Part shown: positions 4,249 through 50,110 of the stretch, one piece after another | Layout of the letters: each line of letters opens with the position of its first letter | How positions within the stretch are numbered: position 1 is the first letter of the stretch | Assembly (NCBI RefSeq): GCF_963514075.1 | Contig: NC_083761.1 | Span: forward strand, 49,861,777-49,925,776 | Length of the DNA stretch: 64,000 nt | Direction of reading: 5' to 3' | Origin: Conger conger | Lineage: Eukaryota | Notes under the pieces: generated by a model | The model's input: only the letters and a program-made list of their open reading frames with translations | What the model was told of the DNA's origin: nothing | The model's database searches: none | Made by a program: the position numbers and the translations under genes

Positions 4249-4442
4249 TGGTACTGCAGGGTCTCTGTGGAATTTCTCCAGTTAATGATCTCCAGACTCT
4301 GTGGCCCCAGGCCCCTGACACAGGCCCCCTCGGCCTTCTCACCCTGCTTTTCCATGCAGGGCCGCAGCCGAACAGCCACGCGGACCCGAGATGGCCGCTT
4401 CGAGCCTCCAGCAGCATCGCCCACAGCCACGCGCTGAGCCAT
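4249..4442 (-). CDS. kif22: kif22 first coding exon. Start codon is at 4442-4440.
   Basis: Translation 'MAQRVAVGDAAGGSKRPSRVRVAVRLRPCMEKQGEKAEGACVRGLGPQSLEIINWRNSTETLQYQ' matches human 'RVRVAVRLRP...[25 protein letters not shown]'. Kozak context is cagccATGG. Donor is TACCA|gtaagt. An upstream in-frame ATG at 4544 encodes non-kinesin residues and is presumed 5'UTR. Confidence 0.8.
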
Positions 4443-4596
4443 GGCTGAGCAGGAGGGAAAGCAAAGCAACTGATAATCATCTGAGTAACCGCATACGTTT
4501 ACAACCGGGCAGCACTCCCAAGCTATTAAAGACACAAACAACATTAAATATGTGGGTGGGTAAACGGGTTATAAGGTCAAGGATTGAGGAATGACA

Positions 4597-4660
4597 TCAA
4601 TATGGCATGGTTATTGAATAGATACACCAATATGGCATGGTTATTGAATAGATACACCAA
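4597..4660. repeat. 32-bp tandem duplication 'atatggcatggttattgaatagatacaccaat', two copies, in the kif22 5' flank.
   Basis: Two exact adjacent copies are seen in the sequence. Confidence 0.8.
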
Positions 4661-6229
4661 TAGCATTCGCAATTTTTGATGTCGAGTATGGTCTGAAAGG
4701 GCATGTTTACACAGCAGGTCTTGATGACCAGTCGTTTTTTTGTTGTTGCATCTATCCAATTTATTTGACCGCCCGTTTACATGTACTGAGTGGTTGTGCA
4801 TACATATCATTCAAAAATACAAAAATAAGAATCTAATTTAGAATGCTGTGTGAAATTATGATCAGTGTGTTGTGACCGTAACGTCAGCAGATATATTCCC
4901 TCCTGGTTTGTGGCCCAAAATGGCTCTGAAAATAGCTGATCTCATGTGCCCAGTAATTAGCAATTCCACTGTACTGCTTTCACAGTGAAATCAACACTAC
5001 TGGCTACCTACTGGAATGCACTTCATTTATGACAAGCACTGTATAATGAAATGCATACTTGTAGCATATTATTTGGCTGTAATTAAGGGTTTGATTGGCA
5101 CTCATGAGAAGAAAATAAACAAGATGAAGCTTTCTTCAGCGAGCACGTTACATGCAGAGCACTCTGGAGTTTCTGCTCTTAGTCTGGTGAAAGCCCTCTC
5201 CACAGAATCAGGAGATTGAGTTGGAGTGGTTTGCTGCCTGTGAAGTTGTGGGAACGAGACCAAACACCATCATTAGGGTCACCTCGGGTGCATGTGCTCT
5301 TCCACTACGCGTAGAAGGATCATCAATTTCTCATAATAACATTAATAACTTGCAGGCATTGACCCCTTAAGTCTCACTAGCCCAAGGCTCCCCATAGGGG
5401 CATTGGGAAGAAAAACAAACCAAGGCAGTAGAAGGGCAGGCGAGGGGAGGCTTTTTTCCTAATCACTCAGCAATCAGAATTTCTGGTTTGCATCAATATC
5501 ATTTTTAACAGTGCAATTCTCAATCACTATGGTAACAGGATATACAATTTCAAAACATTAAAACTACATCCCACTCTCCAAAAGGTGTATAGTTTGTTAG
5601 GCTTTCATAAAACACACCTTTTTTTGCGAGCGTAAAGGTACAGTTTTGCGGGCGTAACAAAACCATAGCATCTTAAATACGCACACCAAGACTGTTACAC
5701 ACAAAAACTGTTCCCAAAATTTTATGGCCAAAAAGGCAGACGTTTTACTACAAAATTGTGATACCAACGTGCAAATGGAGCAGTAAATAGAGACTTACTG
5801 AAGAATCTCTCGTCTCTAGCCTCTCGAGTGAATATTTCTGAGGAAGAGAGTGAAAACACCTTTGGCTTCACATTTGGCATTTTAATTCTCGAGACCCCAT
5901 TTCATATCAGTGATCCTCTAAATGCATTTTCAAAAGATTGCATCATTATTCAGCAAGCTTATAAGGAGCAAACCCATTTTTGAATAATAAATACCACGTG
6001 AAATGGTGGTATGTGTTCAATCAATGGACCTCAATGGATGAATATCTTAGCAACAGGTCAAGAAGATTGCAAAATCTTGTGTACTGAGGAGAGCACAAGG
6101 AGAGGGAGATTCCATTTTTCTGAGTGTAGGGTGTCATGAAAACCACACACTTGACAAAAACCTTCAAGGGCCAAAGAGAAGTAACCATGGGAGAGACTGA
6201 AATATTGTAAAGGTTGTAAAATGAACAAC

Positions 6230-6692
6230 ATCCTTGTAAAACAATATAGGAACTGCAGTGGGCGATTCTAAGATTGTTAGCTTTAGTTCTGATCTGTATG
6301 AAGAATACTGCTTCATTCAGGTTTACCAGTCTGGCCCTTCTCCACTGGCCTCTCATTAACAAGGCGTCTATGCCCGCAGAACTGCTGCTCACTGGATGTT
6401 TTGGCACCTTTCTCTGCAACCTCTAGATACTGTTGTGCATGAAAATTCCAGGAGTTTCAGCAGTTTCAGAGATATTCAAACCACCTGTCTGGCACCAACA
6501 ATCATTCCACAGTCAAAGTCACTTAGATCTTAGAGGATTTCTTCCTCATTCTGAAAAAAAGGCTGAACCTCTTGACCATGTCTGCATGCTTTTATGCATT
6601 TAGTTGCTGCCACATGATTTGCTGATTAAATATTTGCAATAACAAAGTGGTGTACAGGTCTACCTAAAGTGCTCACAGAGTGTATACAGACT
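6230..6692 (-). mobile_element. Tc1-like DNA transposon fragment of the same family as 15966-16547. The 5' terminus (as the reverse complement of '...ctttaggtagacctgtacacc', 'ggtgtacaggtctacctaaagtgctcacagagtgtatac') is at ~6692.
   Basis: The characteristic family segments '...ccacctgtctggcaccaacaatcattccacagtcaaagtcacttagatc' and 'ttgctgccacatgatttgctgattaaatatttgc' match the other copies in the window. Confidence 0.6.
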
Positions 6693-6920
6693 CACAGACG
6701 TCACATTCCCTGAGGAAGGCCTACAGTTGAAACGCATCTTTCTCTGGTAGTTGGCTAAAATATAGGCCTGAGGTTGGTCTCTAATGTTACCCCAATTCTG
6801 TTCTCTCGCTACACCTTTTCTTACTAAAGCACTGATTTCTCCATTTCTTTACTGACAGTACCTGCAATTTTCTTTCGTGTCATGCAAGTCCTGGAAATGT
6901 GCAGTTCTGTGTTGATTCCA

Positions 6921-7867
6921 GGGGCCTCATTTATAAACGTTGCGTAGGCACAAAAGAATGCGTACGCCACTTTCTAAGCAAACTTTGACATTTATAAAAA
7001 ACTAACTTGACGGGAAAATGTGCGGTCCTCCACGGAAACTCTGACCCATGCGTACGCACATTAACTGGAGAAATGAGAAACTGTGCCTTTAATGCTCGTG
7101 ACGCAAGACCAGAAAACGGGAAGTAAAACAGGATGTAAAAAGGTATAAAGATTTGCCGGGAGTTATGGCTGGGTATGGCTGCTGTAAGGACGTGCTTCGT
7201 CCCTGTTATACTTATTAAAGTGTTGTGTTGTTGAATCTCGCTATACGGGTTCTCTCCCTTCCTAAGTGCAACACAACATTTGGCAACGAGAGAAGTCGAA
7301 AATGATATACAACAGATACCACTGTGTAAAATAAATCTAAATTGATTGTTGTTGATTGTACTCTTAAAGGGTTCTGATTTTCTGCATGTTTACACTAGGA
7401 CTCGGAACTATACTGTCCTCTCAGGTCCTCTTTGCACTGTAATGTAATGTAATGAAATATTACCTCTCACGTATCATATACGAAGAGTTAATTTGCAAAA
7501 ACGGATGAAAGCCTCTCTTACAACAAATAAACAAACAGCTGTTTGATTGATGCTCCCTCGAGTGCCCAAAAAATATGATTTAGGATGATAAATATAAACG
7601 GAGATGTTGTTGTAAAATAATCCCTCAAATATGTAGACGAATTGTTATTAAATGTATTCTCATAAATAATATTGGGAACAGTCGGACAAATTGCGCTGCA
7701 CTGATGCCGTTTACAATGCGTCAGTCGGGCAGATACGAGCATAGTTTCATATATTGTTATCATATTCATATATTATGTTTTATAATGTGTTTATTGTTAT
7801 AATTTTTTGTTTGTTTTATCTCTTAATTTTGTAACTGTTTTCAATGGTGCTAGACAAATAACGTGCA

Positions 7868-7898
<31 letters not shown>

Positions 7899-8289
7899 CA
7901 TCGTCGTCGTCACATTCGTTGTGCAGAACTGTTCGTCATTTACAATCAATCAAGATAATTCCCACACCTGTAGCTTTTCAGAGGCAATCAAATGGCTGAA
8001 ATCCCTTTTCTTGGCCTTTTCAGCGTTTGCCATTGTCGTTTTCGTGAAATGCATATTCATTAGGGGTGTTTCACTGCCTATTTATAGGCAACTGTGGGCG
8101 GGACATGAAGCTGGCAAAGTTGCGCCACATTTAGAGTTGATTGTGATTTACAAAGGAAAACTGGCGTGGGGCGTGCGTATGCACTGTTTTATAAATCAGA
8201 ATATTTTTTTTGCATACGCACGTCCTGGGTTTCATGCTTACGCAACCTTTTTACGTGAATCCTACGCACAGTTTTATAAATGAGGCCCC
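6921..8289. mobile_element. Non-autonomous DNA transposon (MITE-like, possibly hAT-type) with TIRs 'GGGGCCTCATTTATAAA' and subterminal GCGTACGC-type repeats. It carries an internal (ATT)n.
   Basis: 6921 'ggggcctcatttataaacgttgcgtaggc' is the reverse complement of 8261 '...cctacgcacagttttataaatgaggcccc'. Short 'tgcgtacgc'/'gcatacgcac' motifs repeat near both ends. There is no intact ORF; the 158-aa ORF at 7807-8283 is a poly-Ile artefact of the microsatellite. Confidence 0.55.
7869..7910. repeat. (ATT)n / (GTC)n microsatellite.
   Basis: attattattattattattattattatcatcgtcgtcgtc. Confidence 0.95.
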
Positions 8290-8311
8290 AGGTCTCCCTG
8301 ATCCGTTTCCG

Positions 8312-8645
8312 TCGGTCTGTACGGCTCAGCCAAAGGTGTTCCTTGTAAAATTGTTCACGCACGTATACACGTCGTTTTATATAGGCGGTATCAGTTTTAA
8401 TTCATCTTAATTTATCTGCATAAGAGTACAAAACTGTAGTAGTTGAGCGTGAACAAACACGGTCTTCCGAATACAGGATAGTCGTGAAGTTATTTGTCGT
8501 TCTCTATAATTATTGGTCCAATTCATATTAATCCAAGTGTTTGTTTTAGTTTATGATCATGGCCAACAAGCAACCATGATCATAAACCACATTCCTCAGG
8601 AATTGACTTATGCTGGAAGCGGCCGCTTCCACTTGTTCTTTTCGG
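8312..8645. repeat. Left arm of a ~4.1-kb inverted duplication; its partner is at 12022-12430.
   Basis: 8561-8600 'ggccaacaagcaaccatgatcataaaccacattcctcagg' is the reverse complement of 12096-12135. 8440-8530 is the reverse complement of 12150-12245. 8323-8440 is the reverse complement of 12300-12430. The arm contains a GGAAGCGGCCGCTTCC palindrome at 8616-8631. Confidence 0.7.
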
Positions 8646-9915
8646 AACACTAAGTTACATTATAGATCAAGTTACGCAAGTTAGCTAGAGCTAGCTAACA
8701 TTAGCGAACAAACTGCACGTAATTGGCTAGCTAATCAAACTTATTAGAAAACCAGTAACTTGGCTAGCTAGCTGTAGCTGAATACCTTGCTAGACAGATA
8801 TAATTCACTTAGCCCAACTAAGTTAGCTAGGTACGCGTTTAGTGAGCAACACATGACACATTTAAAAAAAGTATTAACTTAAGCCAACCTACCTAGCTTG
8901 CTACTCGGCCATTTATCTATTTATTAACAGCCAACCAAACACATATTATGAAAGGACCACGCTTACCTTAATATTGTTCTGAACAGCGGTTAACTTCAGA
9001 TGCTTTAACTGCTGTCGGTGTAAAATAACAAGCTTGGCTATCGGACAAGAAACAATTTATGAAAACGCAAACGTTTGCGGTCTATCGTTTAGATACAGCC
9101 ACTGTTGCGAGGACCTTCCATCAAATATTTTTCAAATGTTGGAGCGTGAAGCGTCGAACGCTAAAGTAACCAATAGGATCTCGTGATTAAATACGTCAAG
9201 ACGTACACTTCCGCATACACTAATTTTTTCAAGGTACATGGAAATTGAATAATTAAAACGTGCGTATGCAATTTAATTAAAATAATTCCACACGTCGGCA
9301 ACGTATATAGTTTAACAGAAACAAGTTACACCAGTATATGAAATTCTCACAGATCATAGTTAACAAGGCCATCTTCGCGTAACGTTACATAAAATGGCGC
9401 TATGTTTACATTTGTTTGGATGGCTAGACGAGGCGAAGCAGTTGGTAGTTCTGGTAGGAGAGAGCCATATTGGGGCGGTCAAGACCTCGAGTAAACAAAT
9501 ACAACATGTATTGAGAGATGCAGACTGTAACTCGCTTAATTCTGAACCGATTTCCCTGAAGTTTGATTATTTATAAACGTGAGAAATTCAACATAATTCT
9601 AGTTACTTGTTAGAATTAAATTCAGTTAGTGGGGGTGAACCTAATCAGCTACATGCGAAAACATTAACCTTCTGAATAGCAACAGCTTTCACTGGGACAT
9701 GCAGGCTCAGATCTATGAATACAACATCAAGTGTAAATTATTTAGAATTTCAGCTTTTGTGAGTTTCTCCAAAAATGTAGATTTCTATATATATTATATT
9801 GTTGTATTAATAATTAAATCAATTAATTGATAAAATAAACAAGACAATTTTTGTTCCCCAGACTCCAGTTAAGAGAAGAACATCCCGTCAGTTCATTTGT
9901 ACATCCCTAGACACA

Positions 9916-11220
9916 TACAGCCCCCTCAAAAAGTATTGGAACAGCAAGTTTCCTGTTGCCCAGATGTGTCATGTTAGATTGATTGCTTAAAAAATAAATA
10001 GTTCTGAATGTATGTTCTTTGTTTTAGCCTTGGGTTTTGCCTCATAAGACTACATTTGTGTTAGAAAAGATAAACCAATATGAAGACCAGAGAGCTGTCT
10101 TTGGAGAAAAGCAAGCCATTTTGAAGCTTAGAAGAGGGGAAATCACACAAGCATTGGGGATAGCTTGTACAACAACTTGGAATGTCCTGAAAAATAAAAT
10201 AAATTAACCGCTGGTGTACTGAGCAACAGACATCAAACAGGTTGACCAAGGAAAACAACAGCAGTTGATGACAGAAACATTGTGAGAGCTGTGAAGAAAA
10301 AACCCAAAATATCAGTGATATCACAGGGCAGGGGTGAAGGTATCTCAATCAACTGTTTTGAAGAATACTTAGAGAGTAGTAATATAGAGGTTATACCACA
10401 ACACGCAAACGACTCATCAGTAGTAAGAATTGGAAGGTGAGATTACAATTTGCAAAGAAGTACTGAGAGGAGACAGAAAAGTTCTGGAACAAAGTTTTAT
10501 GCACTGACGAGACCACGATTAACCTCTACCAAAGTGTGAGAAAGATATAAAACATACAAGCTCATCTCTGAAGCACAGTGGAGGAAGTGTCATGGCTTGG
10601 ACTTGCATGGCTGCTCCTGGAGTGGGCTCACTAACCTTTATTGATGATGTAATTCATGATGGTAGCAGCAGGATGAATTCAGAAGCCTACAAAACATTCT
10701 GTCTACCAACTTACAGAGAAATGCGTTGAAACTAATTGGGAGGAACTTCATTTTGCAGCAAGAGGAAGAACCAAAACACACTGCCAACACAATAAATTAC
10801 TTCATTAGGAAGAAAAAGTGGAAGATTTTACACTGACCAAGTCAATCACCAGACCTTAATCCAATTGAGCATGCTGCAGTAAAAGCCTGGAAAAACATCA
10901 CAAAAGAAGAATTAAACAATTTGATAATGTCAATGGATCGCAGACTTGGGATATGCCACTAAATATTAATTGTTATTTACTTTCATTTACTTAAATACTC
11001 TGTGTGCCAATAATTTTGGTCACCTAAAAATTGGGTGGTCCGATACCAAAGGTGCTATGTTCTAAGTAGTTTAACACATCTAGGTGTAAATACCACAAAA
11101 TAAAAGCTGAAATTTGGAACTCTTGTCATGTGTTCATCATTTTTATCTCAACCTCATATGTATTCAATGTATTGCAAAAACGATGGAATTAGCCTCCAAT
11201 ACTTTTGGAGGGGACTGTAT
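9916..11220 (+). mobile_element. Tc1-like DNA transposon, internally deleted and frameshifted, with both TIRs 'TACAGYCCCCTCMAAAAGTATTGGA' and flanking TA.
   Basis: 5' end is 9916 'tacagccccctcaaaaagtattggaacagc'. The 3' end at 11186-11220 '...ctccaatacttttggaggggactgtat' is its reverse complement. Internal translation shows Tc1 transposase remnants '...QQDNDPKHTA...WPSQSPDLNPIEH...'. Confidence 0.8.
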
Positions 11221-12021
11221 ATCTCGTTGTACACATCTTACATAATAAAGTGTCTGCTGAATAATTAAAAATAATCTTTGGCATTTATAGCAATGGTAAT
11301 ACATTGTGTAAGTGAAATAGAGACAAAAGACAGGATTAGAATGGTGGTGGACGCAGCAAGGGAATAACTTGTTGGGTATAACTAATGTGAGGGGATAAGA
11401 TCAAGGGAATTCTGGATAAAGGGTTTAGAGGCAGTCAGACACCGTGGAAATAGGATAATGCTAAATGAAGAATGTTGCATTAGGAACGGGAGAGAGATTA
11501 TTCTTTTATTTAATTTTCCAAAAAGAGAAACACTGTACATAATACAGTAGATAATGCATTCTTGCTTTCTTGTATACCGTCATAAAACACCAAACGAAGA
11601 AGAGTCTCAGTCCCCACTCCAGATCAATAGGTGGCGGTAATTCCCTTTTTGTTGTTATCAAACCACGTTAAACAAAACTGAAGAAAAAGAAGAAAATATT
11701 GTTTGGATACACCGGATACACATCTGCTAACAACGAATCAAATCCACTTTAATATAATTGTACGTGGACACTATAACGGATTGCTTGCTACATTTCATTC
11801 AAAAACTGCGAAAGCAACAGCAGTGTACTCCTAACGTCTAAAACGAGGTTAGTTTTTAATTTATTTATCTAAAGTTAGAGTTAACGAATGACGATGCTCT
11901 AGGCTAGCTAGTCTAACTTACTCGCAAGCCTGTCAGAATAAAGTTACATTAACGTTAGTCTAGCTAATTTGGGGGGTGTGTTGTAAAGTAAAACTTAATT
12001 TAATATGTAAGGTATACTCGC

Positions 12022-12430
12022 TGTGTTCCGAACAGAACATGGGGAAGCGGCCACTTCCACCAGAAGTTAACGTCCATTAAATGGTCATATTTCTCCTGAG
12101 GAATGTGGTTTATGATCATGGCTGCTTATTGTCTATCTCAGACACTAGAACACTGTCAGTGATGTGAATTGGACCAATAATTATATAGAAAACGACAAAT
12201 AACTACACCATTTCCCTGTTTGGGGAAGACCGTATTAGGTCACGGTGCTCCGAATAGCACCTGAAGCACAACTAACAGTTTTGCACTTTGTTTTAGAGGC
12301 AAGTCTCTAATAAATCTTTATCTGGTTAATCATAACGTGAATTAATACATTTTATAACTATAAAGCATTATACAACGATATGTATGTGCGTGAACAATTT
12401 TACAAGGAACACGTTTGACTGAGCCGTATA
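12022..12430. repeat. Right arm of the inverted duplication; partner at 8312-8645. It lies 240-650 bp upstream of the pagr1 ATG.
   Basis: See the left arm. Similarity decays beyond the arm ends ('gctagc'-rich tracts occur on both inner sides). Confidence 0.7.
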
Positions 12431-12669
12431 AGCCTGCCCGCCTCGTAGTCTCTCGTTAGCTACAACTTCCCCACCACACCGTCATGGGGAGCACCGTTAC
12501 CTTGTCACTGTAGGCTGAAACTGGTCGCGTACGTGACTCGTACCAAGATTTTATGAGGAACACACACAAAAACCAAAGCTGATCTGGAAGTTATTTCTTA
12601 TTTATTCGTCATGAAAGTTGCACTGTTCGGAACATTCTGAGCTAAACTCTTGATATTTGTATTAGGTTG

Positions 12670-12853
12670 ATGCAGTGCCAGAGTACAGAAGCAACAGACT
12701 CTTCTCTGAGAGATGGAATGGAGTCGTTGGGAGTTACGGAGGAAGACAAGGTTTCGGCAATGAGACAGGAGGAAGAGGCTAAGGGAAAAGAGGGGATGGA
12801 CACAACAGGTGGAACAAATGAGGACAAAGATGAAAATAAAGATAAAGAGAAAG
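12670..12853 (+). CDS. pagr1: pagr1 (PAXIP1-associated glutamate-rich protein 1 / PA1) coding exon 1. ATG at 12670 is preceded by an in-frame TAA at 12643.
   Basis: Translation is an acidic N-terminus '[61 protein letters not shown]'. Donor is GAAAG|gtacag. The frame is continuous into exon 2. Confidence 0.75.
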
Positions 12854-38050: not shown

Positions 38051-39345
38051 TACAGTTGTAGTAGGCTAATAATGTTACTAAAATCCCACATTAATGGGAG
38101 TGTTTTCATGTAAAGAATACATTTGTATATTACAATGGATGCATTTCGCTCTTTATTGGATAGCTTAATTGCCTTTTAAATTATATTCATGAACAGACGA
38201 TTTCCTAGTCATCATGGTTTCCCAAGTCAAAGTATTAGTCCAAATTCAAATAAACAGTCTAATTCTTATAATCTTATAATTGGTGACCCCTGGTTTGCTC
38301 CTTTGCTCCACTCGTTAACTCCTCTCCTTCACTCCACATACTTCCACTGGAGCGGAGGAATGGAAGTGGCAGAATGGAGTAAAGGAGGGTGGAGTGAAAG
38401 TTAATGGGACCCAGCCAGGGTTAGAGACTGTGTAGTCAAAATCATGACCTTTGTTTGACATCATCGCCAGTCTGCATCTGCACCTGCCCTGTCGCCAAGT
38501 CTGGTGGTACACTGACATAACAATAAATCACGTCAACATATTCTCACCGGATTGTTTGACAGTTAGCTAGCTCCTTGTCTTATTACTTACTACTTACTAT
38601 CTATACAAATTGTATACGATTTAAAAGCACAATGTGGGCTATCAGTGGATATTCTTATTGACTGAGAAAGTTGTCAGGCTAGCATGACCTTGCAAATCAT
38701 GGCCGAGTAGGCGGGGTAGATTGGTATACAAGTGGGGTACGTTGTTACACATTACATATGCTTGACATACAGATGCAATCAACCAAAAACAGACATACAA
38801 ACTAAAATGATTTACTTACTGTAGTACCAGTTAGAAAAATTGCATGGAGCTTTTCTTATTTTGATTGATTTTACTCAGAGCTGACGGAGATGCGCAGGTC
38901 AGCTGAGACGGGACCCAGTATGACTGGATGACAAACTGAGGTGTTCCTGTGAGTTCAACTACAACGTAAAGTAATTTGAATAAAAACAACCAGTTACATC
39001 TCGTATTTACCCAATCTTTAACAATAGAATGAAGAAAGAATTACCTGAATACATACAATAAAAAAAAAACTGCATTTATTAATTTCCCAAACATTTACAT
39101 TTTTTAACAACTAACTGACCGAATGCATGGTAACAAACGACCTGCGGGTGGGGTCCATTGTTGCAATGTAGCTACAAGTTATGTTTTAAGTCAAACTGTA
39201 CCTTTCATGTTTCCTATCGAGTTTAATAAACATCATAAATAGCTGATAGACTGAAGATATTCCCTGCAACATATTGTCACGGTTATGCAAGCGGTCTCTT
39301 AGCAATCGGGTAAAATACAAAAAGTGCCACAACGGATCTCGAACT

Positions 39346-39501
39346 CATTACATTACATTACATTATTGGCATTTGGCAGACGCTCTTATCCAGAGCGACG
39401 TACAACAAAGTGCATACCCATAACCAGGGATAAGTTCGCTGAAAGACCCTTGAGGTAAGTACAATTTCAACTGTTACCTGTACAAGAAAGATAAGGACAA
39501 G

Positions 39502-39537
<36 letters not shown>

Positions 39538-40440
39538 AACAAACAAACAAACAGAGCAAAAGTCACCAAAGTTAACTATCCAAACACTGCTTACCTAGCC
39601 AACTAAAATACTGATACACAAGTCACAGAGACAACAATTAAGGTTCACAGGGAGGTAGGGAGGGATGGGGAGAGGTGCTGTTTGAAGAGGTGTGTCTTCA
39701 GCTTGCGCTTGAAGGTGGGGAGGGATTCTATAGTTCTGACCTCAACGGGGAGTTCGTTCCACCACCGTGGAGCCAGAACAGACGGTAGTCGTGAGCGTGA
39801 GGTGGAGGTTCTGAGAGGGGGAGGTGCCAAGCGGCCTGTGGAGGCTGAACGAAGAGGTCTGGCAGGGGTGTAGGGTCTGATGATTTTTTGCAGATAAGCT
39901 GGGGAAGACCCTTTAACTGCTTGGAAGGCTAGCACCAATGTTTTGAATTTGATGCGAGCCATGACAGGCAGCCAGTGGAGGGAAGTAAGCAGGGGGGTGA
40001 CGTGTGAGTATTTGGGAAGGTTGAAGACCAGACGAGCTGCTGCATTCTGGATGAGTTGGAGGGGTCTGATGGCAGACGCTGGGAGGCCAGCCAAGAGGGA
40101 ATTGCAGTAGTCCAGGCGGGACAGAACCATCGCTTGGACCAGGAGCTGGGTCGAGTAGGGGGTGAGAAAGGGGCGGATTCTCCGTATGTTGTATAGGAAG
40201 AACCTGCAAGACCGGGTCACCGCCGCAATGTTCTCGGAAAGGGACAGTCTGCTGTCCATCACCACGCCGAGGTTCCTTGCACTGGGTGACGGCGTGAGTG
40301 TGGTATCCCCGAGGGAAATGGAGAGATCCAGATGGGGAGAGGTATTAGCAGGGATGAATATCATTTCAGTTTTACCTGGGTTGAGCTTTAGATGGTGGTT
40401 GTCCATCCAGCTCTGGATGTCCCTCAGGCAAGCAGAGAAC
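39346..40440 (-). mobile_element. L2-clade LINE 3' fragment (ORF2 C-terminus plus 3'UTR). It ends in the conserved L2/SINE tail and a (GTAAT)n-type terminal repeat; an A-rich tract lies in the UTR.
   Basis: ORF 39645-40406 reads '...SCRFFLYNIRRIRPFLTPYSTQLLVQAMVLSRLDYCNSLLAGLP...RKLKTHLFKQHL', paralogous to 25728-26444. On the minus strand the 3' end reads 'tgtacgtcgctctggataagagcgtctgccaaatgccaataatgtaatgtaatgtaatg'. The poly-T at 39513-39536 is A-rich on the minus strand. Confidence 0.85.
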
Positions 40441-40626
40441 TCCCCTAACGTTAGTTGATTACCTAGGCTAAATGTCTTGTATGCCTGGTGTCAAACAAAG
40501 ATCATGTTCTCAAACTACTCATCGTAAAAGGTCAACTTTCAGCTTGTTGGAAATATCATTTAAAAAATATTGGATATTGTTGTCAAAAGATAGCAAATTT
40601 AGGTAAAATACCCCTATTCCCCCTGT

Positions 40627-41407
40627 TAGTCCTTGCGCCAAACCATTTTTCAGTACCATCTGGGTGGGCAAATTCTAGATGTGATTTTTTTAGTCCTATA
40701 CATCCCTAGATTATGTTTTGATATGATAGACCTTTTGGTTTGGCAGCTTATTAGTGGTTATCACCTCCTAAAGGTATGGACTGCTTTTGTTCAAAACCGG
40801 AGTTTTGCCAAAAAAAGTCCCCTGCCATATTTTGCTCCCCTTCGTGTTATTTGCTCGTAGCTCGGGCTGTGGGGGTGTTAGAGACATGTTATTGTGGTTA
40901 TTGTTATGCGCCTGAGTCTCCTGAACATGTAGAGTCGATCAGACCTTCCTAGGCCGAGCTATGGTCACTTTTCCGCACCTACCCCCTACCGGTGAATGCC
41001 TAATTTTTGCGGTTTTCCGGAGGTATTGTGCGGTAGATGCGGGAAAGTTACCATAGCTCAGCGTAGGAAGCTCTGATCGACTCGGGGTTGGTATCTACGT
41101 GTACAGGAGACTCAGGCGCATAAAGAACATGTCTCTATCAACCACAGCCCAACCACAGCCCGAGCTACGAGCAAATAACGCGAAGGGGAGCAAAATATAG
41201 CAGGGGACTTTTTTTGGCTCCACCAGAAAAGTTAAAAAGGGTAAAACATTTTACCTAATAGATATCACCATGAAACTTCCTCAGTTGGTTACTTACATAA
41301 AGACTATTATTTTTTTGTATTAAAAGTTTTCTGAATTTTTATGTTTAAATATGCAAATGATGCATTATCTACTTAAAATATGTGTTAATTTGCATAACTT
41401 TCCAGAA
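40627..41407. repeat. Left ~780-bp inverted arm of the composite element (arm A). It contains a ~350-bp near-perfect hairpin palindrome (about 40850-41215, centre ~41010, ~47-nt loop).
   Basis: A is the reverse complement of 46318-47114 over its full length, with asymmetric flanks. Within the arm, 40845-40880 'ccccttcgtgttatttgctcgtagctcgggctgtgg' is the reverse complement of 41150-41195. Likewise 40895-40975 is the reverse complement of 41045-41130. Confidence 0.8.
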
Positions 41408-42774
41408 TAGAAATCTAATCTGTAAAAAAAAATCTAAAAGTAATCTAAGCAAGTCCCCCTGTACAAACCTTTAGAATATGGATAATAACACATACAATAC
41501 ATAAACCCTTTTTGAAGGTTTTGTTTATGTCCAGGTTTCAGTTCAGTGAGTGAGTCTAGTGGCTGGTGACCGCTAGGACCATAGGCAGATGCCTTGTTGG
41601 TAAGTAATTTGTTCAAAGTACTTAAAACAAATAAAGTGTGTGTTTACCCCCTCAAATGAATTAATTTATCTCCAGCCAGATCCATATTTAGAGGTAAGTT
41701 ACCTTAGGTAACTTTAGCTAGCAAGCTAGTTTAGAGTTAGCGGTAATGTATAGCTAGCTAGTTAGCTGGCTAGTTCATAACGGGGTCATTCCTATGTTCC
41801 CCGGGTCCTATTGTCGAGGACCCGGCCCTAGGCCCCCCTGATGACAGATTGACGGGGGATGGGTTTGGAAGGAATGCATTGTTAACCCCTCGCACACGCC
41901 ATCGAGGTGGTAGTAAGAACGCCCGTAAGAAGAAAAATATGTGGTTCAGAGATAATGAGCAGCCATACTTGTCAGTAGAGGAGTCTGAAGTCGGGGGACT
42001 TAGATTTAGGGTTTTAAGGAGCAAGGTTAAAGTTCTGACTGAGAATACCCCAACCCTACAGGGGAGGGGCACAATGCCTGGCTAAAGAAAAAAAAAAAAA
42101 AAGGAAAACGGAAGGGATGTCAATACCGAAAGAAGATTAAGAGGCTTCAAGGGCCTTCCTGATTATAGCACAAATAATTTATCGGATAGATTCAAAGGAC
42201 TGACTGTAGAAGAAGTTGGGGGATGATTTACACTCAGCTATTGGCTGGATGTCCTTTGTAGATCCCTTAAGGCGCCGCGGAGAGGGGCACCTGAAGAGTG
42301 TGTTGAGATGGTGGAGGGCACTAACCGCCGGCTTGTATGAAGTCAAAGTTTGGAGAGAGTCCAAGGAGAGATTATGACAGGGAGACAAATACCAGTGATG
42401 AATAGGTTCATAAAAAAATTACATAAGAGCTAGTGTTTTTCCACTCGTATATTAAGATGGTGGAAATTCCAAAACCGGAGGGGCACATGAAATAAAATAT
42501 TGGGGAAATTTCTTTTGAGATATGAGAAAATGACAATTGGAAAAACAGAAATAATGAATATGGTCATTAAAAAACAAGTTACATAAGAGATAAATGTCTT
42601 CCCGCTTGAAATATCGGGGACATTTCTTATCAAAAAGGTAAACTTTTGTATGCAAAAAAGATATATAAGGAATAAGCTTTTAGACCTTAGGGTGGGATCT
42701 TAGAATTTTGCCTCACAAGATATCTACGAGCTGTTGAAGAGAGAGCAACGCAAGACAGCTGTAGTCAAGCTGGA

Positions 42775-43308
42775 GTGGCACGCTCCCTCTGCCCGCCACT
42801 CCAGGATATGGATATGGAGAGAGGAGTGACGTACGCGGTGCGGACTCAGCCCAAGAGTTGTGGCAGCGGGACTGATGTCGAAGAGGTGTTCATGCGCATC
42901 CCTCATCATACAGAAAAGCTGGTGAAAGAGTTAAAGGGCTTTTACGACATGCTTGGAGCCGTGAACTGCACCTGGAGGCCAACAGACGGGACGCGGGGTT
43001 CCTCCACGCTACAGAACACCTTCCTGCTGGACCCACGCAAGAACCTGAAGCCTCCCCCCCTAACCTCAGTGTCAGTGAGGAGAGGCATATGCTGCGGCAG
43101 CACTGCAAAACCCCCGACGTGTTCGAAGACATACCAGTGCACATCCCATACAACAGGCAGGAGAAGTACGAAGTGCAAAGTCACGTCTTTCGAAAGTCTG
43201 GATCCTGATCCTGCCCCAGATTCCCAAACCAATGCAGCTGTTCAAAGAGCTCATCAACAGCAAGGAGGAGGGATCAAATCCCACAGAAAACGAGATGGCT
43301 ATATTTAG
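42775..43308 (+). other. 177-aa ORF inside the composite element. It has no homology I recognise, so it may be element-encoded or fortuitous.
   Basis: Open frame 'MARSLCPPLQDMDMERGVTYAVRTQPKSCGSGTDVEEVFMRIPHHTEKLVKELKGFYDMLGAVNCTWRPTDGTRGSS...'. It has no splice-supported gene context. Confidence 0.2.
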
Positions 43309-43952
43309 GGCATGGGTGGTAATTATAATCTATATTACTTGTAAAAGTAGGAAAAGTAGTACATAGAAGTAATACATTATAAGTTTCCTTTCATTTTTAT
43401 GTCTTTTATTTTTTAGTAAGATATATACGATATAAATAAGTAGTAGACTTTAGGGGTGTTCGTACCCATTGTATTAATGGAAGTTCAGTAGCTTTTATCT
43501 CCGTGAAGGGGGAGCCATAAGATAAGGTAAAGGCCAAAGAGGAGGATGGATATTTGAGGGGTGTACCTTGACTTTTAAACACCAAGGTGGAAAGGTAAAT
43601 TAGAAAGAGCTAAAGGGGTATATGTAACTTGCATGTGATCAGCAAACTGCAAAAGATGATATGTACACTGTAATCTGTATAACTCTATTCTTTTGATTGA
43701 TTATAATAAAGTATATCTTACTATAATCATATGTGATAAAGATTCTTTAGAGGAATACATTGAATACAGGACATCAAATACCAGATTTGCATCACACCCT
43801 TCACTTCGAGACTGGGCTGGAAGTTCAGTAGAACTTACCAGGGCTCCAGGACGTTCGGAGTACTTGAGTTCGTCCCCGAGACACCTCATTGTGAGGTACT
43901 GCTCATGGGAACGTGAGGTCTGAGCTCGGCAAGGGGTCCGTGGCTCACGACA

Positions 43953-44043
43953 CTATGTTCCCGTTTCCCGAAAAAGGGTCCTATGTTCCCTTGTTTCCTG
44001 AAAAAGGGTCCTATGCTCCCCTGTTTCCCCGGGAAAGACTGCC
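43953..44043 (+). promoter_or_regulatory. Three tandem ~30-bp direct repeats ('ctatgttcccgtttcccgaaaaagggtc' and variants) immediately upstream of the nuclease-like ORF. They are followed by a palindrome 'gccatcctagg...cctaggatggc' (44041-44104) that spans the ATG. Candidate promoter/operator-like or transposase-binding repeats.
   Basis: Seen directly: units at 43953-43980, 43981-44010 and 44011-44043. 'gggaaagactgcc' is repeated at 44031-44043 and 44107-44119. Confidence 0.45.
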
Positions 44044-44099
44044 ATCCTAGGTTTGGGAAATTTGCACGCAGCTGAACCGCTGGATTTCCTAATCCTAGG

Positions 44100-45185
44100 A
44101 TGGCAGGGGAAAGACTGCCGCCGTGGACTACCATGTATGTCGTGATAAAATCATCCAGTCTGATAAAGTTCTTGGTTGAGGATTGGAAAGGACCCAATCA
44201 CAGAAATAAACTACAAGACAAGACCCTATATGTTGCCTGTGAAGAAGTCTGCTTCAAAATCAGCAAGACCCAGTGGAAGGAGGTAACACAGCTCAAATCC
44301 TCTCAGGAAGAAGCTGACACCCGCATGCAATTGCATGCTCTCCATGCAGCAGAGTCTGGCTACAAGGCGGTGATCATCACGGCTGACGACACAGATGTTC
44401 TGGTGTTGACTCTGGGTTTGAGCAAGGACATCCCATGCAGAGTGTACCAAAAATGTGGCACACAGAACAGGACAAAATTCCTGGACATCACAAAACTATG
44501 CCAATCGCTTGGCGATAGTGTTGCTGGTGCCTTCGCATTCACTGGCTGTGACACTGTCAGCGCGTTTGCAGGACGTGGGAAAGTGGGCACCCTCAAACAG
44601 TTGAAGTCAGACAGGACATACCAAGATGCCTTCCTTGAGCCCGGTCGTACTTGGGATGTCTCCGATGAGCTCTTCAAGAAGCTGCAGGAAGTCACATGCC
44701 GCATGTATGTACCCTCTACAAAAACGACATCTGTCAACCTTCTTTGGTACCAACTTTTCTGCACCAGACGTGGAGAGGTCGAGTCCAGCCAGCTTCCACC
44801 TTGTGAGGATTGCCTATTTATGCATTCCATTCGGGCCAACTATCAGGCTGCAATCTGGAGACAGTCTCTTCAAACCCAGCTATCTGTACCAAGCCCCAAG
44901 GACCACGGGTGGACCACAGATGATCAATCGCAGCTGGAAATCCAGTGGATGCGCGGTTCCCCAGCACCAGATGCTGTCTTGCAGTTTCTCTCCTGCAAGT
45001 GTGTGAGGTCGTGCAAACCACCACAGTGCACATGTATCAACAATGGCCTGAAGTGCACAAACCTGTGCAAACTACCAACCTGTGCCAACCAACACAGTGG
45101 GGAAGAGCCTGCTGCACATCTGACAGACTCAGATTGTGTAGCAATAGCAATCGTTTGGTTTATAATATATTATGTGAGAAATTAA
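44100..45185 (+). CDS. Intact intronless 361-aa ORF with an XPG/FEN-family 5'-nuclease signature and a Cys-rich C-terminus. The N-domain is atypical or absent. Putative element-encoded nuclease.
   Basis: I-domain acidic motifs 'SSQEEADTRMQLHA' (cf. FEN1 'SEAEASCAAL') and 'KAVIITADDTDVLVLTLG' (cf. 'AAATEDMDCLTFG'). H3TH-like 'FAFTGCDTVSAFAGRGKVGTLKQL' (cf. '[23 protein letters not shown]'). C-terminus 'CKCVRSCKPPQCTCINNGLKCTNLCKLPTCAN'. There are no internal stops over 1086 nt in otherwise decayed repeat-rich DNA. Confidence 0.55.
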   Translation: MAGERLPPWTTMYVVIKSSSLIKFLVEDWKGPNHRNKLQDKTLYVACEEVCFKISKTQWKEVTQLKSSQEEADTRMQLHALHAAESGYKAVIITADDTDVLVLTLGLSKDIPCRVYQKCGTQNRTKFLDITKLCQSLGDSVAGAFAFTGCDTVSAFAGRGKVGTLKQLKSDRTYQDAFLEPGRTWDVSDELFKKLQEVTCRMYVPSTKTTSVNLLWYQLFCTRRGEVESSQLPPCEDCLFMHSIRANYQAAIWRQSLQTQLSVPSPKDHGWTTDDQSQLEIQWMRGSPAPDAVLQFLSCKCVRSCKPPQCTCINNGLKCTNLCKLPTCANQHSGEEPAAHLTDSDCVAIAIVWFIIYYVRN

Positions 45186-45747
45186 ATGGGATTGGACTTT
45201 TCAAGTAATCTATTGTTAGCCTATTCCTGCAAATATCAGGACAGAAGAAAAATCAATATCACTTTTAATACAGTAAAAAGTACAAATAGTTTCTGGCATC
45301 CAACAGGTCAAGATGTGAATGAAGAGGTAACAGTGACACCTATAGTGGCCTGGAGGCTACAAGTAACAATTGATAAGTTATACAGTAGGGGCCTGTCTTA
45401 TACACAATATAATAGTACTACTTAAAGAGATGCTAGTGTGAGTGACTGGCACTGGAAAAACTTCATTAAGAAGATGTTGGTGTGCTGAAGAAGGGAGTCA
45501 TGAGGCAAATGAGATAGTGGTTTTATTAACCAAAAATAACCAACAAAAATCAGGAAACATAAATTTGCAGCCCTGGGATGCTACAAATATAATTTAAATC
45601 AAAACCACTTCCACAGCCTCACAGGACGCTGTTCTCTCACCAAGGTCAGAATGACCAGCTTATATACATCTTCCTCAGCCCTACATTGGTTGGACTGAAC
45701 CATTATCCCAGGTACAGGGTAGGCTATACAAGAGGAGGTATCATAAA

Positions 45748-46120
45748 TGTTCTTAAGATCCATCCATCCATCCATTATCTTAACCCGCTTATCCTGAACA
45801 GGGTTGCAGGGGGGCTGGAGCCTATCCCAGCATACATTGGGCGAAAGGCAGGAATACACCCTGGACAGGTCGCCAGTCCATCGCAGGGCACACACACCAG
45901 TCACTCACACACTCATACCTACGGGCAATTTTATACTCTCCAATCAGCCTAACCTGCATGTCTTTGGACTGTGGGAGGAAACCGGAGTACCCGGAGGAAA
46001 CCCACGCAGACACGGGGAGAACATGCAAACTCCGCACAGAGAGGCCCCGGCCGACGGGGATTAGAACCCAGGACCTCCTTGCTGTGAGGCGGCAGTGCTA
46101 CCCACTGCACCATCCGTGCC
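45748..46120 (-). mobile_element. tRNA-derived teleost SINE with the common body 'tgtggagtttgcatgttctccccgtgtctgcgtgggtttcctccgggtactccggtttcctcccacagtccaaagacatgcaggttaggc...gataagcgg...(GGAT)n'. It is nested inside the composite element.
   Basis: The reverse complement of 46040-46118 gives a tRNA-like head 'ggcacggatggtgcagtgggtagcactgccgcctcacagcaaggaggtcctgggttctaatcc' with A- and B-box-like motifs. The body matches the copy at 49214-49495. Confidence 0.75.
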
Positions 46121-46317
46121 GCCTGTTCTTAAGATGTAAATGAAAAATATATTTTCAAACATTATATAGGTTGACTGTTGGGACTCCATACACCTACAGG
46201 TTTCACTGCCTTGTGGGCTAAATAAATGTATCTGTGGTCCGTGGATAAACCAACAAGGTCTATCACATCAAAAGATAATCTAGGGATGTATAGTAATTAA
46301 TTACTGGCTTTATCCAA

Positions 46318-47114
46318 TGTTCTGGAAAGATATGCAAATTAACACATATTTTAAGTAGATAATGCATCATTTGCATATTTAAACATAAAAATTCAGAAAA
46401 CTTTTAATACAAAAAAATAGTCTTTATGTAAGTAACCAACTGAGGAAGTTTCATGGTGATATCTATTAGGTAAAATGTTTTACCCTTTTTAACTTTTCTG
46501 GTGGAGCCAAAAAAAGTCCCATGCTATATTTTGCTCCCCTTCGCGTTATTTGCTCGTAGCTCGGGCTGTGGTTGGGCTGTGGTTGATAGAGACATGTGAG
46601 ACATTCTTTATGCGCCTGAGTCTCCTGAACACGTAGAGACCAACCCCGAGTCGATCAGAGCTTCCTACGCTGAGCTATGGTAACTTTCCCGCACCTACCG
46701 CACAATACCTCCGGAAAACCGCAAAAATGAGGCATTCACCGGTAGGGGGTAGGTGCGGAAAAGTGACCATAGCTCGGCCTAGGAAGGTCTGATCGACTCT
46801 ACATGTTCAGGAGACTCAGGCGCATAACAATAACCACAATAACATGTCTCTAGCACCCCCACAGCCCGAGCTACGAGCAAATAACGCGAAGGGGAGCAAA
46901 ATATGGCAGGGGACTTTTTTTGGCAAAACTCCGGTTTTGAACAAAAGCAGTCCATACGTTTAGGAGGTGATAACCACTAATAAGCTGCCAAACCAAAAGG
47001 TCTATCATATCAAAACATAATCTAGGGATGTATAGGACTAAAAAAATCACATCTAGAATTTGCCCACCCAGATGGTACCAAATCGTCCAATTTTGGGGTT
47101 TGGCCCAAGGACTA
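46318..47114. repeat. Right inverted arm of the composite element (arm B), also containing the ~350-bp hairpin palindrome (about 46540-46900). A 37-bp direct repeat of its terminal segment lies at 46250-46286.
   Basis: It is the reverse complement of arm A. 'ggtctatcacatcaaaagataatctagggatgtata' (46250) is a direct repeat of 'ggtctatcatatcaaaacataatctagggatgtata' (46996). Confidence 0.8.
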
Positions 47115-47116
47115 TG

Positions 47117-47192
47117 TGTTATGTCTACCCCCTTTTTTGTGTGTGTTATGTCTACCCCCTTTTTTGTGTGTGTTATGTCTACCCCCGATAAG
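47117..47192. repeat. 29-bp tandem repeat 'gtgttatgtctacccccttttttgtgtgt', ~2.6 copies, immediately abutting the outer end of arm B.
   Basis: Seen directly. ORF 47028-47258 translates it as repeated 'CVMSTPFFV'. Confidence 0.85.
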
Positions 47193-49213
47193 GGAAGTGG
47201 CTACGGCGGTGACGCGTTTCTGGTCTGGTGTATTGCCGCCTGGAGTATTTGGAATTGATGGCTAGATCTGATGGCGACCGCTATTAATCCAATCGATATA
47301 ATCCAAACTATAATGTTACCGTTAATCACATCTCCCTAATTTATTTGCCGTCTGGTTATCGATCATTTTGCTAATGTAGCAATGAGCTGAACTTATCTTG
47401 TGTAAATGCTGGCGATTGTAACGTTAGGCCTACTTTATTCTCGAGACTGCTATAAGGTTACTTCAGCAAAAAGAAACTATCGATAATGTTATGCGTCAAC
47501 ATCGGTTATCTATAACGTTAGTGTCCTAAATTGTAGGCTACCGGTATATGACGGTATTACTATTACGTAGTGACGTTCTGCAATTAAACGAATCAAGCCT
47601 ACATATCACGTTAAACTCACCTCCCCAATTTACCTGATGACTGCCTATCGATATTGCAATCTGCTAAGATATGAGCTGTTCTTTTCATTATTTGTCCATC
47701 TTGTCTAGCTAGCTGATGAGTTTACTTTATTCTCTTTATACGGCTCAATATTGAAAACACTGTTATTGCTTTAATCGATTGCCATTGTCATGGTCGTACG
47801 ATAACTAGGTACCGCTGGGAGTGAGCGGCCCGGGCTGTCAATCAAAAGTGAATGCATAAATAAATGAGAACACTGTTTTGAGTCGGCTATATGAAGAAAT
47901 TCAGGTTCTACACCAAAGCAGGTGTCTATTTCTAATTCAAAGTCTAATAAGTAGAAAAACAATATAGTCATTTCTAAATTACTAACTAAATGTAACTAAT
48001 GGAAAAATTAAAATGTAAGAAAAGGGAGGCTGCACAGGGACTTTAAGCACAACTGTGCAAAACCCCAGATTTAAGGCGGATATCCTGTACTCAGGCAATA
48101 CTCAGTACTCAGGCAATATAAATCTTTTTCCCCCCAGAACGACAAGATGTTTTAAGGCCATCTTTAGTGAATAAAAGTTCAATGCAAAACGAAGCGAATC
48201 CTGGAGATAGAGCGCGAAATACAGGCACATTTTTAAATGCCCTTGGCGACGCGGAAAATCTCCCCGCGCATGGGAAGCCATAATAAATTATAGAATTTAA
48301 TGTGTCATTGTACTGGCATTACACCAATTAGAAAGCAAGTCTTGTTACGAATTTAATTTGTGCAAAAACCTGCCAGTTCCCATCTCATTTGGCCGCTCAG
48401 CCTGTGTTTGATTTGCGAGTAAAATACAGGTTACGTTATGTGAGTTCGAAATAGCCAATTACTTCGTAACGAGCCCCAGAATAATAAATTTAATTAATCA
48501 GATAATTTGACATTGCTCACATTATACAAATGTTGAGGTGGCATCAGTTGATATTTGGCCATCTTTAGTGAAAAGCTGCAGTATATTAGTGAAGCACCCT
48601 TTATGCTGAGGAAAGTAAGCTTTCTCCATGTCACACGCCGTGACACACCCCTGGGCGGGACAGAAGCGATTAACACAGGGAGGTAGAATCAGTATTCACC
48701 AGCGTTGTATTACTCCACAGTCTTGGTCACACGGGGAAAGGAGAGCAAGAGAGAACTCATATAAACAAAAACAACTAAAGTATAAGATGGTAGCTTCTCA
48801 GCGTCCTTTGGGTACGCACCTCTCGCTTCCACGACTCTGTCCCCGGTCTCACGCGCCTACTGCGGGAAAGAGCACACATTTAACAACCTGGACTAATTAG
48901 GCCTACTCATGTAGACCAGGTATGCGTCTACTTAATCAGTAGGCGGGGTCCTCGGATTGCCCTGCCTCCTTCCCACAAACCGAGCCCCACCTGCCACAGT
49001 CCAGTTTTGCTAGATCTCCTGAACGGTCAATGTAATTGAAATTGAACAATGTCCTTTAGAAATGCAATGAAAAACAGCAATCATTGAATGAACCAGAGAA
49101 AATATGAGTCAGGTAATTTATTGAAATGTATTCAAGGAAATGTACGTGGAGAATATCCATGTCAATGGGAATGGTTCATCAAAGGTTAAATGGTTAAATC
49201 AATTTGTAGAAAT

Positions 49214-49495
49214 CTCTGTGTGGAGTTTGCATGTTCTCCCCGTGTCTGCGTGGGTTTCCTCCGGGTACTCCGGTTTCCTCCCACAGTCCAAAGACATGCA
49301 GGTTAGGCTGATTGGAGAGTCTAAATTGCCCGTGGGTATGAGTGTGTGAGTCAATGGTGTGTGTGCCCTGCAATGGACTGGTGACCTGTCCAGGGTGTAT
49401 TCCTGCCTTGCACAATGCATGCTGCCTTTCATCCCCCTGCGACCCTGTTCAGGATAAGCGGGTTAAGATGATGGATGGATGGATGGATTTGAAGA
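49214..49495 (+). mobile_element. 5'-truncated copy of the same SINE family as 45748-46120 (lacks the tRNA head), ending in (GGAT)n.
   Basis: 'ctgtgtggagtttgcatgttctccccgtgtctgcgtgggtttcctccgggtactccggtttcctcccacagtccaaagacatgcaggttaggctgattgg...ggataagcgggttaagatgatggatggatggatgg'. Confidence 0.75.
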
Positions 49496-49714
49496 AATCG
49501 AGTGGTGTCTTAAAATGAATTACATTCTGCAATGTGATGAGAAGAAAAGGCTACAACGGGAGATAGAATTCAGAAAAGGCCTTGGGAATTCAGGAAAAGC
49601 TTTGGAATTTTCTGCCAATTAATTATTCAGATCATTTATTGCCATTCTTGTTAAGCAATCCCATGTTGGCCATCTCTTTGTTTTTATAATTTCATAATCA
49701 TTATAGGCTACATG

Positions 49715-50110
49715 CACTTATAGTGAGCACTTATTAGGTATTTATTAGACTTATGTTTTAGACTTCTGCTGCTGTAGCCTATCCACTTAGTTATGATGCA
49801 TTGTGTGTTCAGAGGTGCTCTTCGGCATACCACTGTTGTAATGTGTGGTTATTTCTGTCACCAGTCTGGCCATTCTCCTCTGACGTCTCTCACTAACAAG
49901 GCTTTTCTGTCTGCAGAACTGCTGCTCACAGGATTTATTTTTGCTTTTTGCACCATTCTTTGCAAACACTAGAGACTTGTGTGTGAAAATCCCAGGATAT
50001 CAGCAGTTTCTGAGATACTCAAACCACCCTGTCTGCCACCAACAATCATTCCATGGTCAAAGTCACTTAGATCACATTGTTTCCCCCATTCTGATGGTTG
50101 ATATGAACAT
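49715..50110 (-). mobile_element. Tc1-like family fragment (terminal regions, internally deleted) in minus orientation.
   Basis: 'cacttatagtgagcacttattaggtatttattagactt' is the 3'-end segment reversed. 'ccaccctgtctgccaccaacaatcattccatggtcaaagtcacttagatc' matches the copies at 6450 and 60730. Confidence 0.6.

Follow-up and report, generated by a model that had tools for sequence, protein, structure and literature searches.

A long-armed mobile element of Conger conger that is very probably a decayed, non-autonomous AcademX transposon

The interval 40627-47114 of a 64,000-nucleotide stretch of the Conger conger genome (contig NC_083761.1, positions 49,861,777 to 49,925,776, forward strand; this whole stretch is called the window, and positions without another label are its own) is a mobile element, because a second C. 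conger copy with the same ends lies at an unlinked locus. The element is very probably a decayed, non-autonomous copy of AcademX, which belongs to the Academ superfamily of cut-and-paste transposons. It consists of two long inverted arms that enclose a 361-codon open reading frame (ORF), and it is flanked by a 3-bp target-site duplication (TSD). A preliminary description, made from the sequence alone, had proposed a transposon with terminal inverted repeats (TIRs) and a short TSD, and this proposal agrees with the TSD and with the further copy described below.

The mutual inversion of the arms, also proposed earlier, was borne out by self-comparison: 40627-41407 and 46320-47114 are 95.9% reverse-complementary over 798 aligned columns in one BLAST alignment (97.0% over the ungapped columns), and three collinear inverted pairs, detected by a repeat search of 39000-49000, make up the arms. 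The similarity stops exactly between tgt and TAGTCC on the left and between GGACTA and tgt on the right, which are the sharp termini previously reported. Chance does not account for these boundaries, since an independent copy ends at the same bases. This copy, L001, lies on C. conger chromosome CM056190.1 at 8403-12309 of its locus, and was found through the best database match of the ORF, a 212-aa C. conger protein with 96% identity. Over their whole length, with both arms and the internal segments, the two elements are 92-97% identical; for example, window 40626-41811 and L001 8402-9599 are 94.2% identical, and window 43953-44159 and L001 9596-9803 are 95.7% identical. All four termini start with TAGTCCTTG(G/C)GCCAAACC, and the similarity stops there.

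The second copy also decides whether 40627-47114 is a single element at all. A local segmental inversion or duplication, or a chance pair of separate ~790-bp repeat insertions on either side of unrelated DNA, would fit the presence of only two arm copies and a 47-nt fragment in the 64-kb window, as well as the mosaic interior with its short interspersed nuclear element (SINE) and a unique 2.1-kb segment. However, at the unlinked L001 both arms are present, the equivalents of 41408-41811, 43953-44159, the ORF and its downstream region follow one another as in the window, and the end bases agree, which rules out a local inversion or a chance repeat pair. Moreover, the inner arm ends lack the terminal motif, and the outer ends carry both the motif of the family and the TSD, so that this explanation is scarcely credible.

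The assignment to AcademX comes from relatives of the ORF and of the termini. The ORF belongs to a family of >770 members in fishes, lamprey, hagfish, crabs and shrimp, with a full length of ~620 aa. At L003 and L004, two unrelated contigs, a conserved large ORF precedes the full-length homologue. When published Academ transposase cores (PMC7165386, Data S3) were run by tblastn on the window and on L001-L006, the Academ-4_BF core matched L003 (E 4e-107), L004 (5e-144) and L005 (1.5e-157) with 47-63% identity, and gave the superfamily tentatively named in the preliminary description a firm basis. The Academ cores had no match in L002 or L006. In the relatives, the Academ transposase is directly upstream of, and contiguous with, the ORF family, an order that places an XPG-type nuclease domain downstream of the transposase. 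This is best seen in L005, a 6.6-kb contig that, like L006, comes from the Logan assemblies, in which the transposase core (2369-3634) runs into the ORF family (3737-5578). In both L003 and L005, 163 residues separate the first catalytic D from the second, and GVFH or GTFH follows; published Academ transposases have a spacing of 138-192 residues followed by G/A/E/QxxH (PMC7165386).

The termini lead to the same group. Non-autonomous members are recognized by termini homologous to those of autonomous elements with an Academ transposase (PMC7165386), and the window shares with L005 and L006 both the tip motif TAGTCCnTGrGCC and a subterminal block of ~125-155 nt (75-84% identity, E 2e-17 to 2e-20). 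L004 and L005, which have the same tips, encode the Academ transposase, and the tip motif is inverted at both ends of related elements. The elements and their flanks are the following.

window element, 40627-47114: flanks TGT and TGT
L001 element, 8403-12309: flanks AAT and AGT (two of three bases agree)
L002 element (Aldrovandia affinis), 8096-12715: flanks TAT and TAT
L004 element, 5179-12619: flanks ATA and ATA
L005 element, 31-6617: flanks GTT and GTT

The 3-bp duplication is perfect in four of the five elements and extends to 4 bp in none; the chance of at least four of five is ~3e-7. A TSD of TA, with the element starting at GTCC, was considered and rejected, since in four elements the three nucleotides beyond TAGTCC agree on the two sides. 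The 3-bp TSD pattern is the AcademX hallmark, and animal AcademX elements have 3-bp TSDs (PMC7165386). The element fits AcademX on every feature open to a non-autonomous copy, and the earlier suggestion of an uncharacterized or new-family element is not supported.

A different superfamily with 3-bp TSDs, such as CACTA/EnSpm or PIF/Harbinger, might have captured an Academ gene fragment; the window copy does not itself encode a transposase, and 3-bp TSDs occur beyond AcademX. EnSpm TSDs, for instance, are 2-4 bp long (PMC7165386). Against this, it is the termini and not just the ORF that are common to L004 and L005, whose only long gene is the Academ transposase-nuclease fusion. The tips are not CACTA-like, the TSDs (TGT, GTT, TAT, ATA) are not limited to the TWA typical of PIF/Harbinger, and the ORF remnant retains its native placement and direction with respect to the 3' end, as a comparison with L005 shows. 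Such a capture is therefore most improbable.

Two observations concern the other loci. At L003, a 74-nt inverted repeat (6782-6855 and 12084-12157, 76% complementary) was tried as the TIR and rejected as subterminal; it lies ~430 nt inside the real left tip at 6354, and the right tip is beyond the contig end. L002 is a separate non-autonomous AcademX whose 5'-type and 3'-type ends are normal; it has kept a 579-aa nuclease/Cys8 ORF and has no transposase. Many of the >770 database proteins also consist of a nuclease/Cys8 ORF only, so that elements may have lost the transposase repeatedly while keeping the nuclease/Cys8 part.

The features of the ends and arms of the window element are listed below.

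40624-40626, no strand: left TSD copy, TGT, by direct reading; equals 47115-47117
40627-41407, minus strand: left arm, probably derived by inverted duplication from the 3' terminal ~790 bp of the same element; a 3'-type end in the 5' position
40627-40644, plus strand: terminal motif TAGTCCTTGCGCCAAACC, family consensus 5'-TAGTCCnTGrGCC; inverted at both ends of L001, L002, L004 and L005, and present also at the L006 ends
40696-40741, minus strand: conserved subterminal block with ATGATAGACC (40723-40732); invariant stretches in the window, L001, L005 and L006
40807-41218, no strand: imperfect palindrome of ~412 bp in the left arm, 73% identical to its own reverse complement; inverted pairs I5, I7 and I10
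46247-46293, plus strand: further copy of the subterminal block, in the interior next to the right arm; it shares 93.6% identity with 46990-47035 and with 40696-40741 in reverse complement, and is also in L001
46320-47114, plus strand: right arm, the native 3' terminal region, ending in ...GGCCCAAGGACTA; homology to the 3' ends of L005 (75%) and L006 (84%) covers its outer ~125-155 nt
46506-46924, no strand: imperfect palindrome in the right arm, counterpart of 40807-41218, from the repeat search and BLAST
47115-47117, no strand: right TSD copy, TGT, by direct reading; opens a TG-rich 27-nt tandem repeat

The TIRs are 13 bp long in L005 and ~23-56 bp in L002 and L004, and reach ~790 bp only in the window and in L001. 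When read from the tip inward, L005, L006 and L002 have distinct 5'-type and 3'-type subterminal sequences, whereas both ends of the window and L001 elements are of the 3' type. In particular, the left arm of the window, from the tip inward, matches the 3'-type and not the 5'-type subterminal sequence of L005 and L006, and the right arm lies in its native position downstream of the ORF, as in L005. With both ends of the 3' type and the right arm native, the comparison suggests that the left arm arose by inverted duplication of the 3' end. At each tip of L005, L006, L001 and the window element, the motif ATGATAGAC(C/T) follows at a distance of 96-107 nt, and this block is a candidate transposase-binding site.

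The same architecture is present at two loci, and the derivative must therefore have transposed after the rearrangement. The history may be reconstructed as follows. The ancestor would have been an element of ~6.5 kb with short inverted tips (5'-TAGTCCnTGrGCC), differing 5' and 3' subterminal regions and one long gene encoding, in order, an Academ DDE transposase, an XPG/FEN-fold 5'-nuclease and a Cys8 zinc finger. An inverted duplicate of its 3' terminal ~790 bp would then have taken the place of the 5' end, of the entire transposase and of ~270 residues at the N terminus of the nuclease part, and the outcome would be two 3'-type ends around a headless ORF. This derivative would have moved at least twice, presumably mobilized in trans by an autonomous AcademX transposase, with 3 bp of target duplicated each time. 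Later, the window copy gained a SINE, gained (or did not lose) a 2.1-kb segment, and lost the native stop of its ORF.

A marker near the tips, a 10-nt indel with adjacent substitutions (...CCAAACCATTTTTCAGTACC vs ...CCAAACCCCAAAATTGGACGATTTGGTACC), is at the left end in the window and at the right end in L001; its sites are window 40645-40662 and 47069-47096, and L001 8421-8450 and 12280-12291. The direction of the ORF is the same in both copies despite this swap. The swap is consistent with an exchange between the ~790-bp arms, by recombination or gene conversion, that inverted the interior, as judged from this single marker. A broader proposal, in our view quite improbable, would hold that the AcademX transposase needs only a 3'-type end, as an element with two such ends was mobilized, that the arms recombine and flip the interior, and that the headless H3TH and Cys8 ORF might be expressed and compete for the binding of DNA ends, so as to dampen AcademX transposition in the manner of truncated P-element repressors.

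The palindromes inside the arms (40807-41218 and 46506-46924) are present as described earlier, but they are ~412 bp long rather than ~350 bp, and they are not near-perfect, as their halves are 73-75% identical by BLAST, with blocks within at 88-97%. Folded as single-stranded DNA, the palindrome of the left arm reaches -171 kcal/mol (z = -26 vs shuffles).

The ORF itself is best described as a remnant.

44100-45185, plus strand: open 361-codon AcademX polyprotein remnant, 1086 nt, with the C-terminal part of the nuclease (EEAD, DDTD, TGCD-GRGK) and a Cys8 finger (residues 299-328)

The 1086-nt frame has all of the motifs previously ascribed to it, namely EEAD, DDTD, FTGCDT...GRGK and a Cys-rich tail. 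The tail is the Cys8 finger CKCVRSCKPPQCTCINNGLKCTNLCKLPTC with the pattern CxCx3Cx4CxCx6Cx3Cx4C, which matches the putative Cys8 zinc finger published for Academ proteins (PMC7165386); all eight cysteines are nearly invariant across the family, and the zinc finger is putative here as well. The frame cannot be called an intact nuclease ORF, as had been done, since the N-terminal catalytic motifs and the native stop are gone, the 5' part is truncated and the 3' end is non-native. The 361-aa product aligns only to residues 269-617 of P0026, a family member of 625 aa, its start codon corresponds to an internal position at which the family has no Met, and a four-residue deletion precedes FTGCDT. 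Of the 127 conserved columns (conserved in at least 88% of 25 homologues), 43 are absent from the window ORF, all of them N-terminal, including IIDGM (D201), DVVFD (D238, D242) and E253/R254. Six further conserved positions are substituted, among them the nearly invariant H417F and R488W. In comparison with L001, a 257-nt deletion has taken the native acidic tail and the stop, and the last 16 codons read non-coding DNA. At the nucleotide level, window 44155-45133 is 82% identical to 4605-5578 of the L005 family region (3737-5578). The window ORF corresponds to the C-terminal ~56% of the nuclease and Cys8 region of an AcademX polyprotein, and its ATG is fortuitous.

The preliminary description had also considered a domesticated nuclease gene. 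A functional gene would require that the frame has been kept open for an H3TH and Cys8 protein, for example a DNA-binding regulator or a repressor of AcademX transposition. This possibility draws on the open 1086-nt frame in a window where the other transposable-element ORFs are broken, and on the retention of 78 of the 84 covered conserved positions, including EEAD, DDTD, GCD and all eight cysteines. Against it stand the internal start with the loss of the 43 N-terminal positions, the read-through that followed deletion of the native stop and acidic tail, the substitution of H417 and R488, and the position of the ORF inside a mobile unit with TSDs. The ORF of L001 carries a different internal deletion, and the window ORF differs from it by nine nonsynonymous and three synonymous codons, which is roughly the neutral ratio, in a count that is small (12 codons). 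Furthermore, the chance survival of a ~1.1-kb frame at ~4-6% divergence is not rare (roughly 0.1-0.2, by our own estimate). Domestication is therefore very improbable, and we infer that the protein of this AcademX remnant has no function. A gene collection look-up with the exact protein returned no record.

The nuclease relationship of the family was approached by sequence, profile and fold. A Pfam search for XPG_N and XPG_I had been proposed as the test of an XPG/FEN-like nuclease, and it returned no XPG_N, XPG_I or 5_3_exonuc match for the window ORF or for five full-length homologues (E < 1); the relationship is visible only by fold comparison. In Pfam scans that also included the 177-aa ORF, a 253-aa ORF and the upstream ORF1, nothing was above threshold, and TCR/CXC appeared below threshold (E 0.09-0.3). 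A sequence search of the PDB with the ORF, and with a profile of 26 sequences, found no nuclease match, and an hhalign comparison of the family profile with human FEN1 (with an approximate sequence) gave a non-significant E of 0.17. Fold comparison, made on a predicted model, supports an XPG/FEN-type 5'-nuclease fold for the family (PIN-like/FEN with an H3TH region), followed by the Cys-rich finger. The acidic residues conserved in the family are D201, D238, D242, E339, E340, D342, D365, D367 and D423, and D..., VFD, EEAD, EDTD and GCD are presumably the counterparts of the FEN carboxylates, a correspondence that draws on the known motifs of FEN1 and on the register of the non-significant hhalign alignment. 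Hence, the nuclease reading stands at the fold level for the family and fails for the window fragment, which lacks the N-terminal acidic clusters and therefore should be inactive as a nuclease.

Several points weigh against the assignment of the window element to AcademX and against parts of its proposed history. With the Academ cores and ORF1 as queries, tblastn found no transposase remnant in the window or in L001, even at E < 10; the assignment of the window copy is based on the ORF remnant, the termini and the TSD, and no autonomous AcademX was recovered from Conger. The window TGT is located in a TG-rich tandem repeat and is weak evidence for a TSD when taken alone. The long-armed family was seen in only two copies, one of which has an imperfect TSD (AAT/AGT), and the 12 codon differences between their ORFs are few. 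Each arm also carries the 412-bp palindrome, for which the proposed history does not account. Finally, Pfam, the PDB profile search and hhalign against FEN1 gave no significant nuclease match, and the nuclease assignment is one of fold, on a predicted model. In addition, no paralogous empty site for the L001 or the window insertion was found in searches of the flanking repeats, and a literature search on Academ in eels, in which the term mostly matched "academy", yielded no mention of it in the one paper checked.

The remaining interior of the element contains the following segments.

41408-41811, no strand: non-coding segment common to the window and L001, from the alignment to L001
41812-43952, no strand: 2.1-kb segment found only in the window, which holds the 177-aa ORF (42775-43308, plus strand); missing from L001, and located between CTAT/GGGTCCTATGTTCCC short repeats
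43953-44099, no strand: shared non-coding segment that abuts the start of the ORF remnant and holds a 2 x 30-nt tandem repeat (43963-44022); from the L001 alignment and repeat family D8
45760-46123, minus strand: nested tRNA-derived SINE with a 12-bp TSD, TGTTCTTAAGAT (45748-45759 and 46124-46135); L001 keeps the uninterrupted site

The 2.1-kb segment may be either an insertion in the window or a deletion in L001. It has no other copy in the window or in any of the loci compared, and the search for TIRs or a TSD of its own gave only a 5-nt TGTCG match and CTAT microhomology. Two copies of the 30-nt repeat GTTTCCCGAAAAAGGGTCCTATGTTCCCTT (43963-44022) and further GGGTCCTATGTTCCC motifs (41790-41811) border the segment, and these repeats may have mediated the deletion or insertion that separates the two copies. 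The 177-aa ORF noted earlier is indeed an open frame, but it is most likely not a gene, because it has no homologue among 5.8 billion proteins (nor a Pfam match) and the window-only segment that holds it is missing from L001. The two copies also show a 98-nt difference at 45508-45605.

The SINE reads GGCGGCACGG...GGTTCTAATCC..., with a tRNA-like head and a (GGAT)n tail, and a second copy (49213-49496, 90% identical) lies 3 kb downstream, outside the element. An Rfam scan of 40000-50000 detected no family. Around the element, ~2.7 tandem copies of the 27-nt unit tgtgttatgtctacccccttttttgtg abut its right end (47115-47187), and the first three bases of this array are the right TSD. On the other side, a 253-aa open frame (39645-40406, minus strand) lies ~220 bp away from the left end of the element and is similar to the part of ORF2 of a long interspersed nuclear element that is C-terminal to the reverse transcriptase (...RLDYCNSLLAGLP... 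vs the tail of the RVT_1 ORF at L003 341-1762). The L001 copy is inserted in a histone gene cluster (L001 3328-16787), with H2A and H2B/H3-type calls to its left and right.

The long 3'/3' arms are the sole mildly unusual feature of what is otherwise ordinary repeat DNA, and the known workings of such transposons are unchanged by any of these results, whose value lies mainly in annotation. UniRef and NCBI list AcademX nuclease/Cys8 proteins (P0001, P0009, P0012 and others) as "Tesmin/TSO1-like CXC domain-containing protein" or as "hypothetical protein". Hundreds of database proteins are so labelled, and no Pfam model reaches threshold on the Academ transposase or nuclease; ORFs like that of the window will therefore keep being flagged as possible new genes, and the present analysis identifies them as AcademX fragments. 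The TAGTCCnTGrGCC tip, the subterminal ATGATAGAC block and the 3-bp TSD serve as markers for one AcademX clade of vertebrates and crustaceans. The predicted model adds fold-level support to the long-standing "XPG nuclease" label of Academ proteins, and the element offers a worked example of a non-autonomous derivative that would have gained ~790-bp arms by inverted duplication of one end.

Among known systems, the closest is AcademX itself. The relatives of the window element keep the one-direction order of DDE transposase, XPG-like nuclease and Cys8 finger, together with 3-bp TSDs and short inverted tips; some published Academ families end in TAGTCTC...GAGACTA, akin to the tips found here. 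The nearest published transposase is Academ-4_BF from amphioxus, and the teleost family Academ-1_GA is in the same alignment. The window copy differs in that it has no transposase and only the C-terminal nuclease/Cys8 part, that its ends are ~790-bp arms apparently derived from two 3' ends, in contrast to the 13-56 bp TIRs of the relatives, and that each arm contains a 412-bp imperfect palindrome. With the FEN/XPG (Rad2) 5'-nucleases, such as EXO1, XPG, FEN1, GEN1, T5 exonuclease and Xrn1, the family presumably shares the order of the acidic motifs and a helix-hairpin-helix-like GKGK region; it has no significant sequence or profile similarity to the group and its nuclease activity is putative, and the window ORF, in which the N-terminal half of the domain is missing, is not expected to assemble a complete active site. 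No statement on long-TIR Academ derivatives was found in PMC7165386, with Repbase and Dfam outside the survey. The window element resembles foldback-like derivatives and precursors of long-TIR miniature inverted-repeat transposable elements, in that the transposase is lost, both ends are kept, one end appears to be inverted-duplicated and mobilization is presumed to occur in trans, and it differs from them in that here the long arms are documented for an Academ element.

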